A stretch of DNA of 22,624 bases from a virus (Duplodnaviria; Heunggongvirae; Uroviricota; Caudoviricetes). This document shows positions 15,001-21,000 of the stretch, piece by piece (positions within the stretch are counted from its first letter, which is position 1; every line of letters begins with the position of its first letter). The stretch lies in the IMG/VR virus record IMGVR_UViG_2521172589_000007, one strand, 5' to 3'. The position numbers were made by a program.

Positions 15001-18000
15001 TGTTGAATTTTTTGCTGCTGAATTTGCTGCTGATACTGCGGCAGTCCCATCGAAGCATAATATTGCGTCACTGCTCCCTGCGCATCACCGCCGTCCTGTG
15101 CAACCTTTATCGCTACCTGGCTGGCTCCTTTCTGAAGTTGATCCGCAGAAAGTCCCTGCTGCTTCGGCGTGAAATAGCCGAAATTTTTCGAAATTTCCGC
15201 GAATTTACTGCGATCCCTGACAAGCTCAACAGCCTTATCAACAGGCACCGCCAGCACGGTTTGATCATCAGGATGTGCACTGCCGTATTCCGTAACGGGT
15301 TTATGTGCTGTAGAGCCATCACTGTATGTGAGATCAAGGCCGATAAGTATGTACCCTTCCTGCTGTGCCGGTACTATACTGCCAATCCTGGCCTCTTTTA
15401 TCGTCTTTTTCCCGGTTGAATCGGGCATGCCAATACGCTGTTGCAGTTCCGGGCCAAACACCCCGGAAAGGACATCAAGATTCTCCGGCGTATTAAGTGA
15501 AGCGATAGCCCTGTCTGGCTTGTCATCAAAGATTTTTTGCAGGTTGTTCACGGCCTGACCCGCTTTCGCTACATAGCCATCATTCGCCATCAGCCTCAGC
15601 GGATTACCCTCTGACAACTGGCCGTAAAGACGCATTGCTGCATCCCGATCGCCAGCATCCACAGCCTTTCCAAGCGCCGCCATCACAGGCTGATCGCGCG
15701 CCAGCATATCGTTATACTCAAGCCGTCGCTGGTTGTATTTCTGCATCCGGAGTCGCTGCTGCTCCATACCCAGCGACGCATTCCGGTAATTCTGGTTGGC
15801 GTTAAACTCCCTTTCCTGCAGTGCATAATTACGGTCGTCGACTTTGGCTCTGTAATCAAAGTTCCGCTGATCAACGTCTTTATTATGTTCAAACTGCGAC
15901 TGTGCAAATTCAAAATCGCGCTCGTTATTTTTCTGTTGTTGAGCAAGCTGTGCTTCTCGCAAACCAAGTTCCTTACGACGGGTCATTGCCTGGTCAACCG
16001 TGCTGAATCCGGCAAGTAAACCCTGTGCAAATCCGCTCATTCACCACTCCTTAAAACAAAGAACCAGCAATACCACCTATGACAGCACCAATAGCCGCAC
16101 CGGGGAGACCACCAACAGCAGCGCCCATAGCTGCACCCGTACCAATTCCCGTGCCGATATTCTGTTTGTTCTGTGCTTTCTGTTGCGCCGCCATCATCTT
16201 GTTTGACGCCTCAATTTCTTCACGTCGTCTGTCTGCATCACTTATTCCCTGTAATGCCTCACGCCGTGACTGATTCGCAATATCCAGTAAACCGTATCCC
16301 ATATTTCCTCCTTAAGCTGACACCAGTTGTCCGCCAACACTCAGTTGCTGTCTTGCAGGTGCAGAAGCCCCCGTCAGTATGTTCATCTGACGATCCTGCT
16401 CTGCTTCACGGATACCATTTTTCGCGCCAGCAATTGCCAGGGCATTACGTAACCCCAGCGTATTACTGTTGGGATTATCAGGTCGGTTAACGCCATATCG
16501 TGCCATCTGGTTATCCTGCGCCATCTGCGCTGTACGGAGACTGGAAGTGGCAAGGCCGCCCACCCGGGCAAGCTGCGCATTCATCAGGCTGTTGTTCTCG
16601 CCAAGGTCAGCCAGCCTTGCCACGCGGGGCAAATATCTGGTTCGCCAGTCGTCGTATTGTTGGCGTGTCAGCGCTGCTGACGTCTGCCAGTCACCCTGTG
16701 GGCGGGCTGCTCCTGAATAACCAGCCCTTGCGAGAGTTTCGTATTTACCGTACTCCATAATCACAGTCTCCAGTTCTGAGCCTGATGCTGAATGGCATTA
16801 GCGCCGGTGCCAGGTGTTTTAGCACCGCCACTTCCTCCGCTACCGCCAGCCTTATGCATCGCATATGCACCAACCGCACCCAGACCAGCGCCAACAAGAG
16901 AGGCTCGCCCCTGCTGTTTCGTAAACGCAGCCTGTGCGTCCGATTTAGCTTTTGCCAGACTGCTGTCTGCCAGCGAGTTAAAACTCTGTAACGCATCCGC
17001 CTTTTGACCAGAACCGAGAGCAGCAACATCCTGTAGCCCGGCAACATACTTATCTGCCTGCGATACCTGCCCCCGTGTGGTTGTGTCAATCTGCCCGGTT
17101 ACCTGATCACTCTGGTTCGCATTCATTACCGCGTTAAAGCGACCACTGGACGGGTCAACACCGGACTGAGTAAGATTACCCGCCAGCTCCTTCCGTGCTT
17201 CGCCAAACTGTTTCTGATACCCCAGATTTGTGGTGCCAGCAATATTGTCGTACTGCTGCTCACTGTTAAGGTTATCGACCTTTTCCATGAAGTTATCTTC
17301 AGCCGGGCGGAGGATTTTTTGATAATCCTGCCACCCTTTCCAGGCCACTTCTTCCTGTGCTATTTGCGCTGCTGTTGGTTTTACTTTGGTATCACCACCG
17401 CCTTTTTTTCCGCCCATTATGGCTCCTCAGATAACAAAAAACCCTGCCGGGGCAGGGTCAGAATGTGAATTGCAATTGGTTTACACACGATAATGAATAC
17501 AGTGGCAGTCAGACCGCTATCCTGAACACCATGAAGCCATCCTCATCATCCGGCATTCGCTCAAAGCCCAGACGTTTTCCCAGCCGGATAAATCCCCGCC
17601 TTGCCGTGTGGAATTCAGCCCAGCGTCCGCCAGCCAGACGGGTTAATGTCTTCACCTCCGGCAGATAACGCTCAACACCGGCACTCCCCGTACACACACC
17701 CAGCAACACCAGAACATAAGGGATACCGTCGTCACTGAGCACAGAACGCAGCACCAGAAAACCATCCGGTGCCTCAAAGCAAAACGCCTGCTTTTTAAGG
17801 CAGGCGTCTTTAACTTCATTCATAAATTCAGGGTTGCGGGAATTTCTCACAACACGCTGCATATACCGGAGAATTTTGTCGTCCATTCTCTCACCAGAAA
17901 CGAGTGCCATATCGGCTGAACCTCAGCAACCAGTTGACGGGAACTTTCGTCCCCGTCGCGGTTTTCCTACTGCTTACACTGTAAGAACGCCGCAAACTCC

Positions 18001-21000
18001 GCCCCCCACAAATTCAGCCGGAGCTCACACAGCGAACCGTGTAACATCCAGATGGTGAAGATTACCGTCATACAAATTGTGACGGTGATGAGCGATTTTT
18101 GCGACATAGCGCTTGCCTCCTGAGTGGAGAGGCGCTAACCTTCTACTTGCTTAAGGTATGATGGTTAGGGCCTCGGGTTAAACAAAATGTTTGACTCGGG
18201 GCCTTTCCCCACATCAGGCCTTCAGGTTCACCTTCCAGCCATCAGCCGAAAGGCACCCGCGCATAATCTACGATTTTTGCCCTGCACGGGCAACAAAAAA
18301 CCCGCCATCACAGCGGGTTATGACATGTTGTCGGGTATTACTCAGAATTTCAGGCCAATGCCTGCAAATAAACCATCAGTTTTCCAGTCGCCAGAGCCTG
18401 AGCTTTCATAAGTGACGTCCATAGTAACACTTTCATTGAAGTTAAATTGCGCGCCGACAGACCATGCAATAGACGTTTTTTTGGTGCTGTTACTTTCAGA
18501 AAAACTACCGGCACCATGATTAAGATTGTCGTTAATTTTCAAGTCAGTGGTGACTTTTGCAACCCCCATACCAGCCATTGCATACACACTGAGGTATTCG
18601 TTAAACCGCCACGAAGGACCGGATAGTAGACTCCAGTAATTAGCCCTGATATCAGTTCTCGCTGAAGCTGCCGGGTTTTTTACCTCTCGTGATGGAGCGG
18701 AAGGCTTAACATCAATAAATGCCTGCGCATTAGTCATGGAGCGCGCCCATGTAAAAGAGGCTATAACACCCAGTTCATCAGTTATCTCGTAACGATACCT
18801 GATGCTCATCCCCAGGGGGCTTTTGGCTGTGCCGTCATGCCCCCGGGCAATAGCATTTTCGTATTCACCTGATGAATTAAAATGGTTTACGTTTACAACA
18901 TTCCTGAACGTATCCCGGTTATAAACACCCGCGTCTCTAACAAAATCCTTCAGCCCGGGGAAGCGTATGTGTGCAAACCCGAGAGATACCGTACTATCGC
19001 CTGATGCTGCATTTACCTGTGCAGTTAAGCAACTCATCACCAGAACTGCACACGCAAAAAATTTCATGATACTTTTCATTTTAAGTATTTCTCTGAATTA
19101 AAGGATGCGATGTCTGAAAGGAACGCTTTCGTTTTACACTATTAAAGTTTTTCTTACGCTAATCATATATTGAGGAACTAATAACCAGAACTTTATCTAT
19201 ATACGGCTTTCGGATATCCCATGTTGCACCACCGGAATAATGCTCACAGGAATATATTTTATTTCCTGTAGCACCAGTAGATGTGGTGTAAATCGGTCGG
19301 TCATAAGGTGTTCGTTTCCAGTTATAATATCCAACCAGTGCAGGCATAATTGCGCATGGATATCCAAGATCCTTCTCAAACTTGATATCAACTGGTATTA
19401 ACTTCGCGTCAAGCAGCATCATTTCGCCATGGTAAATCATCTCACCCGACGGGTTATACATGGCGATACCATACTCAGAAGGTTGAGTAACCATATTCGC
19501 AAAAGCATAAACAGTCGTAACACCGGGATTCGTTCCCCTGACAATTTGATGAAGCCTTAAGGCATGATATCCATCAATCTGTTCATGCGTGTACATGACA
19601 TCGGCCTTCTTCTCTGTTCTGATAAAGAAAAAACAACTTTTTCCTGACGGAATTGACGTTTTAAAAAAAGCCTTCTCAGTCGCCGGAATAGTTCCCTTAT
19701 TGATCAGACACTGAGGCGTAAACCCCGGGCTTATCCACAAGCTGCCATCTGGTTTCGTAATGCTTAAACCATACATACAACTCACCCCCAGAATGTATAA
19801 ATATATGACCCCATCCCCTGCTCAAGATTTGACCACGTCACCGTATTGCCATTAATGGTTATCTTCGGTACTTTCCGGTCCTTAAATACATTATTCCACG
19901 GAAATAATGAACAGACTGCCTGCAATGTTTTCCCTTCTGGTTTATTCGTATACGTTTTTGATCCCGACTCCGCCGTAAACCTGTCCAGGAAAAATATGGG
20001 AGTAAGCACGCCCGTAACATTAACGTTATTTCTGTTATAAATGGCAAAACCGTATTCCAATACTCACCTCCTGATCAGCGTAATCTGCCTATGCGAACAG
20101 CCAGTCGTCCATTCTGATCATAAACCTCAATTTTATCATTGCGGATCACCAGTCCTACATTCTGATTAGAGTAACGAATTGTCAGTTGCCCTTGTGACGT
20201 AACACTGAAAAGGCCTCCAATATTCAGGTTACCCTGAGAATCAACCTGAAAGTTTCCGTTCTGAATAACGGCACTCCGGATAACTGGCGAAGTGATACTT
20301 ACCCCAGCTTTTACCTCATCCGCCACAACCTTCCGCGACACCAGTGTTTCAATCACCGCGTCATAAATCATCGCTTTCGGGATCACTACCTTGCCACCTG
20401 ATACCGCAAACGGATAGGCTGTGTTATCCGGATTATTCGGGTCAAAGACAAACAACTGCGACGCAGAAATTGCAACCTGACTTACAGGCCTGCCTTCACT
20501 GTCTTTTCCGGCGACAATCCCGATCCCCGCAGTGATACCATCAACTCCCGCTTTTTTTGACCACATCGCAAGGAAGGCCTCACCGCCTTCTTTATCCAGT
20601 TTAGTGATGCGCTTGTCGACCTCATTAAGCGATTCACTGGTTGACGAATCCAGTGTGCTAATCCGGGTTTCAATACCAACAACCATTCTTGTCGTTTCTT
20701 CCCTGAGAGTCCCTACAACTTCGGTTGTCTTAATTGCAGCATCCTTTACAGCCTGCCCCTGCGCGTTTTTTATTTCTTTACGCAGCTCGGACACAACCGG
20801 CGACTTTGCAGCCTCATCGCGGATCTGGTCAATGATGGCCTTCACGCCGATCTGTGTTTGTGCCTGAGTGCCTTTTTCAGCATTCCATGGACCTTTCACT
20901 CCTGCCGCGTTAACAAAACGTATCCAGTAAAATCCCGACCAGCCAGGGTCAACCGGATCGCCGTAAACCTGCCCCGGCGTCGTGGCAACCAGCACTGCAT

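Follow-up and report, generated by a model that had tools for sequence, protein, structure and literature searches.

Our analysis concerns a 22,624-nt stretch of viral DNA (Caudoviricetes; IMG/VR record IMGVR_UViG_2521172589_000007), hereafter the window, which is the Shiga toxin (Stx) 2a prophage of Escherichia coli O104:H4. On its minus strand, downstream of lom, the window carries a compact locus that, reading from its sequence, is probably a functional hok/sok-type type I toxin–antitoxin cassette (we put the probability at roughly 0.8), HokA-like, belonging to cluster 72 of a survey of Hok homologs (Escalera-Maurer et al., bioRxiv 10.1101/2025.08.07.668861) and forming part of the cargo of the Stx2a prophage. 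Over its 446 nt, the locus matches E. coli O104:H4 chromosomes with 100% identity. Starting from an alignment of the peptide, we gathered 87 related loci; the structure statistics reported below use 47 distinct sequences from this set, and those for the hok promoter use 63 distinct loci. The cassette and its toxin gene, an open reading frame (ORF) preceded by a Shine–Dalgarno (SD) sequence, are positioned as follows.

18293..17902, minus strand: hok/sok cassette, ~390 nt (~390-400 nt across contexts)
17967..18107, minus strand: hok coding sequence, 46 codons plus stop, peptide MSQKSLITVTICMTVIFTIWMLHGSLCELRLNLWGAEFAAFLQCKQ
18121-18116, minus strand: hok SD AGGAGG, preceding the hok ORF

The initial annotation of this region had described a 46-codon ORF behind an AGGAGG motif, encoding a peptide with Hok-family hallmarks, and had named alignment to known family members as the way to recognise a chance resemblance. 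Both the ORF and its SD are present at the positions listed, and the family assignment was borne out. The peptide matches the PF01848 HOK_GEF profile at 35.2 bits (gathering score 22, E = 9.1e-9, profile positions 6-42 of 42); with K-12 HokA it has 47% identity (BLASTP, E = 8e-13) and both SLCEL and AAFL.CK in common; given this score and this identity, we regard the two motifs as true family features and not as chance matches. Sequences of HokA, HokC and HokW taken from annotated records all align with the peptide, L26-C27-E28 being invariant in the alignment and C44 present, and a hydrophobic stretch runs from L6 to L22, near the N-terminus. Identity is lower to HokW of phage 933W (37% over 35 residues) and to HokC (24%), and the sequence identifies the peptide as HokA-like, not as HokA. 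Of 88 related loci, 87 have an unbroken ORF, the remaining one being cut by a contig end, and the ratio of non-synonymous to synonymous substitution (dN/dS) is 0.04-0.30, with the C-terminal half under stronger constraint.

Upstream of the toxin gene, the features required for its transcription follow directly on those that end lom.

18319..18299, minus strand: stem of the lom intrinsic terminator, with its T-run; the hok promoter lies directly after
18265..18293, minus strand: hok promoter, with -35 TTGCCC (18293-18288), a 17-nt spacer and -10 TAGATT (18270-18265)
17902..18258, minus strand: conserved core of the hok mRNA, from the predicted +1 (GGGUGCC...) to the end of fbi (GGCACUC)

This sigma-70 promoter had previously been proposed with low confidence, and our comparison strengthens the proposal, as the promoter is conserved across two unrelated phage contexts. 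The -10 reads TAGATT or TAAATT in 58 of 63 loci, the -35 reads TTGCC(G/C) in 55 and the spacer measures 17 nt in 60, while the 6-nt gap from the -10 to the G start is fixed in 62. On account of this conserved spacing and of the 6-nt gap, we place the +1 at 18258, which gives a leader of 151 nt to the hok ATG, in line with the ~150 nt estimated initially. A consensus promoter scan lists neither this promoter nor that of the antisense gene described below, because each matches no more than 8 of 12 consensus positions; support for both comes from conservation instead. The leader can be aligned with two annotated loci, hokC/mokC/sokC and hokW/mokW/sokW. Weak Rfam matches to Trp_leader, Leu_leader and Hrs1 (18292-18372, minus strand) were set aside, as they correspond merely to the lom terminator stem and T-run and not to separate RNA elements.

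Structure prediction for the leader, which the initial annotation had suggested as a check, returned a tac/fbi-type closure of the mRNA together with a target hairpin and an anti-SD hairpin. The predicted elements, named after those of the plasmid R1 system, are listed in order from the 5′ end.

18242..18258, minus strand: tac-like 5′ element GGGUGCCUUUCGGCUGA, pairing with fbi (closed) or with 18208-18198 (open)
18198..18208, minus strand: ucb-like box GGAAAGGCCCC, partner of the 5′ end in the truncated/open conformer
18129..18174, minus strand: Sok-target hairpin, GAGGCCCUAAC (18174-18164) paired with GUUAGCGCCUC (18139-18129)
18108..18136, minus strand: anti-SD hairpin AGCGC-C-UCUCC-ACUCA-GGAGG-CAA-GCGCU, occluding the hok SD and abutting the AUG
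17936..17957, minus strand: 3′ hairpin GACGGGGAC-GAAA-GUUCCCGUC, the expected protective end of the processed mRNA
17902..17919, minus strand: fbi-like 3′ element UCAGCCGA..GGCACUC, complementary to the 5′ end

The RNA from 18258 to 17900 folds with a z-score of -6.4. In its minimum free energy (MFE) structure, the closed form is held by 15 bp between the 5′ end (GGGUGCC..UCGGCUGA) and UCAGCCGA..GGCACUC at 17919-17902, and this end pairing is kept in 93.8% of cells, compared with 23-48% in slid controls. Without its 3′ tail, the RNA of the window folds with local pairing at the 5′ end instead, and the RNAalifold consensus contains the corresponding local hairpin, in which columns 1-11 (the 5′ end) pair with columns 52-61 (GGAAAGGCCCC) and which is nearly invariant; the ucb-like GGAAAGGCCCC itself aligns with AGAAAAGCCCC in the hokC and hokW leaders. 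Within the Sok-target hairpin all 11 pairs are kept in the RNAalifold consensus, with changes only to G.U, and its GAGGCCCUAAC strand holds the GAGG of the former mok SD, GAGGCC aligning with the SD of mokC and mokW. The anti-SD hairpin, which is also part of the MFE structure, is paired in 86.6% of cells (25-55% when slid) and its outer helix in 99.6%. Compensatory changes are found at two stacked pairs of the 3′ hairpin (AU:28/GC:19 and CG:20/AU:19/GC:6 in the RNAalifold alignment).

The O104:H4 allele carries three private changes, each missing from all 46 other distinct sequences: an inserted GG at 18210-18209 in the leader; a C-to-U change in fbi at 17903, which turns a G-C pair into G.U and the GGCACCC that is invariant in the 46 relatives into GGCACUC; and L29 in place of F29 at hok codon 29 (18023-18021). 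A few relatives look decayed. In L027 (1298-1364) the promoter and 5′ leader have been swapped for unrelated sequence, and in L066 and L067 the 5′ end reads GGACACC and is no longer complementary to their own GGCACCC.

An antisense RNA gene had been expected on the plus strand within ~18110..18260, its promoter having eluded the initial annotation. Homology and conservation allowed us to locate both a predicted Sok promoter and the hairpin that it would transcribe.

18113..18141, plus strand: sok promoter, with -35 TTGCCT (18113-18118), a 17-nt spacer and -10 TAACCT (18136-18141)
18149..18212, plus strand: predicted Sok RNA, ~60-65 nt, with a single-stranded 5′ end, a hairpin at 18167-18205 and a UUUCCCC tail; both ends are predictions

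The sok -10 is identical in all 47 sequences, the -35 is TTGnnn in 46 of them and the spacer is 17 or 18 nt. The promoter is convergent to that of hok and its -35 overlaps the complement of the hok SD, a geometry that is that of the R1 Sok promoter. The predicted Sok is fully complementary to the hok leader at 18149-18212, and its 5′ end is placed 42 nt upstream of the hok ATG, a distance like that of sokC from hokC (49 nt). Its hairpin comprises 18 bp (-38 kcal/mol, z = -5.6), of which, on the plus strand, the outer 10 bp are formed by every sequence (100%). Among these outer pairs are three G.U pairs, two of them invariant and one frequent, that become C.A mismatches on the hok strand, and the proportion of paired hairpin cells is 84.5% for the antisense strand and 67.4% for the sense strand. 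This asymmetry suggests that the plus-strand transcript is the folded molecule under selection.

Taken element by element, the cassette resembles the hok/mok/sok locus of plasmid R1. Common to both are a long leader, tac/fbi end pairing, an alternative tac/ucb hairpin, a GAGG target hairpin, a protective 3′ hairpin and a convergent Sok promoter with its -35 over the hok SD. The description of R1 (PMC9841398) includes tac, fbi and ucb elements, a Sok-target stem and a protective terminal stem-loop, each of which has its one counterpart here, the 3′ hairpin of the window having the position and role of the last stem-loop of Tr-hok in R1 (PMC9841398). R1 differs in having a mok ORF and a terminator after fbi, both of which the window is without, and in the window an anti-SD hairpin of its own covers the hok SD, the peptide measures 46 aa rather than 52 and the carrier is a prophage rather than a plasmid. 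Among named Hok proteins the closest is HokA (K-12 b4455). The window peptide is four residues shorter than HokA, and hokA differs further in being chromosomal, in having an annotated mokA and in being disrupted by IS150.

The limits of the cassette are sharply drawn. Homology between loci starts exactly at the hok -35 box and stops right after fbi, ~60 nt past the stop codon; identity is 0.74 in the leader and 0.84 in the ORF, compared with 0.29 upstream of the core and 0.3-0.4 far downstream. The related loci come from two phage types and several genera. Near-identical cassettes form one group, located downstream of lom in Stx phages, and the lom alleles beside them vary between 64% and 99% in protein identity (window lom, 18342-19079, compared with L011-L052), with the hok module at >= 94%; a sharp mosaic boundary is seen at the junction of lom terminator and hok promoter. 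A second group, with 76% identity, lies in P2-like prophages, directly after gpD and ogr at the prophage end. Being present in two unrelated phage types, the ~390-400-nt unit is mobile cargo. In both contexts late genes (lom; gpD-ogr) lie just upstream of the cassette and run in its direction. Several IMG/VR provirus boundaries among the P2-type loci fall exactly at the hok stop codon. Contigs assigned to Xanthomonas pisi (L004), to a Planococcaceae metagenome-assembled genome (L005) and to Vagococcus sp. (L007) carry cassette copies that are 76-98% identical; as these are species-representative assemblies of unrelated bacteria, the copies most likely reflect assembly contamination.

Several observations weigh against a functional hok/sok cassette. 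The best NCBIfam model for the peptide, the HokA equivalog NF007290, scores 40.9 bits, short of its cutoff of 89. No Rfam match in the window reaches the gathering threshold; a permissive scan returned an end-to-end match to sok (RF01794) at 18258-18096 on the hok strand, with 35.6 bits against a gathering score of 59, although its E value of 2.3e-6 counts in favour of the cassette. Support for the RNA structures is mostly conservation and covariation is sparse (the end pairing, for example, has only 5 compensatory cells), which we attribute to the narrowness of the family. No intrinsic terminator is found between fbi (17902) and 17802, nor before 17440. Finally, no ORF overlapping hok, and hence no mok, is found in the window or in most of its relatives. 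With CCCGAGGCC as an anchor, the ATG of mokC and mokW lies six bases on; the window has ATC-ATA-CCT-TAA at this point (ATC at 18162-18160), with a stop three codons on; in the P2-type allele the mok start position reads GTC.

The leader does contain a short upstream ORF (uORF), which we considered as a substitute for mok.

18143..18214, minus strand: leader uORF of 23 codons, in which the AUG at mRNA +45 (18214) is conserved and the frame and length are not

The AUG at +45 is present in 45 of 47 loci. However, the ORF that it opens spans anything from 8 to 79 codons in close relatives and the 23-codon frame of the window stems from its private 2-nt GG insertion at 18210-18209, on account of which the uORF was rejected as a conserved coding feature.

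At the 3′ side, homology of the window to its relatives stops after GGCACYCGTTT, and the P2-type allele has a canonical, bidirectional terminator 22 nt past fbi (L006, 1728-1762, and other P2-type loci). The downstream gene, which encodes a hypothetical protein of 133 aa, has its annotated ATG (17910) within the hok fbi (ATATGGCACTC). This fbi motif is kept in relatives with a different downstream gene and therefore belongs to the hok cassette. The downstream gene may actually begin at the in-frame ATG at 17886 on the minus strand (MDDKILRY...), which follows GGTGAGAG.

The sequence analysis indicates that the conserved sigma-70 promoter starts the hok mRNA at ~18258, that the full-length RNA closes by pairing of its 5′ end with fbi, that the hok SD is buried in the anti-SD hairpin, and that the convergent promoter on the plus strand makes a Sok RNA of ~60 nt with a strand-specific hairpin. 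By analogy with R1, trimming of the 3′ end back to the hairpin at 17957-17936 would free the 5′ end to refold onto GGAAAGGCCCC, upon which the GAGG-containing GAGGCCCUAAC would pair with GUUAGCGCCUC to form the Sok-target hairpin, drawing the anti-SD strand off the hok SD. Binding of Sok would, again as in R1, reverse this opening and make the duplex a target for RNase III. With the GAGG strand occupied, whether in the closed form or when Sok is bound, GUUAGCGCCUCUCC would be free to clamp the hok SD. Once the unstable Sok decays or sok transcription stops, Hok would be expected, as in R1, to be made and to insert into the inner membrane, with depolarisation or killing as the outcome.

As there is no mok frame, control is probably exerted directly on the hok ribosome-binding site. 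Partition-function folding was carried out on the full-length RNA, on the truncated RNA and on the truncated RNA with its Sok site blocked. In several relatives, truncation raises accessibility modestly, with the clearest effect at the AUG, and blocking of the Sok site lowers it again. For the window itself, the unpaired probability of the hok SD is ~0.2 in all modelled states, with SD and AUG mostly paired, and accessibility of this allele is unchanged across the three states. We therefore infer the SD-loosening switch with weak support from the modelling. Tentatively, the cluster-72 hok could be a mok-independent variant of hok/sok in which GAGGCCCUAAC serves only as an anti-anti-SD and in which Sok, or the closed fold, releases GUUAGCGCCUCUCC onto the hok SD; in the Stx cassette, which has also lost its terminator and is fused to the next gene, this fusion could tie Hok to late read-through, lysis and Shiga-toxin release.

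The loss of the mok start invites a different explanation, namely that the locus is a regulatory relic: an intact and intrinsically toxic ORF within a native locus that, after losing its mok start (and, in Stx phages, its terminator), no longer translates Hok and is carried as silent cargo. In R1, translation of mok is mandatory for Hok synthesis and mok start-codon mutations abolish Hok translation (PMC9841398), so that the replacement of the mok ATG by ATC or GTC, and the lack of a hok-overlapping ORF in most members, fit this explanation, as do the missing terminator after fbi and a hok SD and AUG that are mostly paired in every modelled state. The chromosomal hokA, hokB and hokC loci are likewise reported, in the introduction to the Hok survey, to be incapable of mediating post-segregational killing (bioRxiv 10.1101/2025.08.07.668861). 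However, the peptide is under purifying selection and its ORF is preserved in two phage types and several genera, and the conservation of both promoters, of the end pairing and of the strand-specific Sok hairpin is not expected of a dead locus. Purifying selection on the peptide together with conservation of both promoters and all RNA elements leads us to consider a relic unlikely.

A further possibility accepts the same module and concerns what it is used for. In both phage types it follows late genes directly and in their orientation, so that expression linked to induction is plausible, and Q-antiterminated transcription reading past the lom terminator could override the sok promoter and produce Hok, which would speed up lysis as well as phage and Shiga-toxin release. 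There is a precedent in hokW-sokW of phage Sp5, which is activated on induction, with disappearance of sokW RNA, and without which phage release is halved (PMC8621323). The case for such a late-phase lysis helper is wholly one of analogy, however, hokW being a different locus with 37% peptide identity, and the cassette has retained a promoter and a fold-back control of its own, as is characteristic of autonomous regulation; we regard this use of the module as possible but less than probable. With low confidence, then, the role of the cassette is prophage stabilisation, or killing or lysis assistance linked to induction. The addiction or abortive-infection function suggested initially is speculation.

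One phage record labels the ORF 'MokW-like host killing', which raises the question of whether the locus is simply the known hokW-sokW of Stx phages. The hokW-sokW module of Sp5/933W has been studied experimentally and encodes a 51-aa Gef/RelF-like peptide (Takada et al. 2021, PMC8621323). The two have in common that they are prophage-borne hok/sok modules of the same phage family with an alignable leader. They differ in position, as hokW-sokW lies at 58460-58734 near attR in 933W, on the opposite strand to the lom-linked locus, and has annotated mokW and sokW. Neither the hokW primers nor the HokW peptide are found in the window. The separate 933W site, this absence and the low peptide identity (37% over 35 residues, with HokW at 51 aa) refute the equation of the two loci, to which we attach next to no probability. 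Phages of the 933W type can carry both hok loci (L003 has the lom-linked locus and hokW near attR); the O104:H4 window has only the lom-linked one.

The hok gene of the window is already known. In E. coli O104:H4 str. 2011C-3493 the ORF is annotated in RefSeq as WP_000078908.1, "Hok/Gef family protein", with an Ail/Lom protein on one side and a hypothetical protein on the other, in a prophage of the 933W type that also encodes a giant LPD38-domain protein. Sequence similar to the 446-nt locus is found in 1,750 of 5,426 complete E. coli genomes (about a third) and in 198 phage records, mostly Stx-converting. The 46-aa proteins recovered by a protein search form a tight subfamily, come from E. 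coli, Shigella and Salmonella, and all bear the name Hok/Gef family protein. The initial description of the locus as unannotated consequently fails for the RefSeq O104:H4 genome and for many others; it holds for the 933W reference NC_000924, where the interval 45428-45856 downstream of lom is without annotation, and for many Stx2a phage entries, which have no feature under the locus match.

The peptide has been catalogued as well. Its exact sequence is unique sequence 1593 of the 60%-identity cluster 72 in the Hok survey, so that at the protein level it does not differ from WP_000078908.1 or from the cluster-72 entry. Two members of the cluster were cloned there for toxicity assays, 72_1589 (differing by L29F only, the common Stx-phage allele) and 72_1621 (the P2-type allele); 42 of 45 Hok homologs assayed were toxic, and the three named as non-toxic all lie outside cluster 72 (bioRxiv 10.1101/2025.08.07.668861). 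The same survey reports that hok is enriched in prophages; it covers coding sequences only and places mok, Sok and mRNA structure expressly outside its analysis (bioRxiv 10.1101/2025.08.07.668861). In the openly readable literature we found no description of hok beside lom or ogr, nor of mok-less hok loci, and the mok-less and, in this prophage, terminator-less architecture of cluster 72 is the sole point for which we found no description.

As the discovery of a gene, the locus matters little, since it is annotated, widespread and catalogued, with a near-identical allele already toxicity-tested. In practical terms, many Stx-phage records, including the 933W reference, leave the interval blank; phages of the 933W type can hold two hok loci; and the annotated start of the downstream gene falls inside a hok RNA element. 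For the Hok family, cluster 72 offers a natural test case for Hok control without a leader peptide, because it keeps all the R1-type RNA elements except mok, which is essential in R1, and it could show whether such a cassette affects lysis timing in the Stx2a phage of the outbreak strain.

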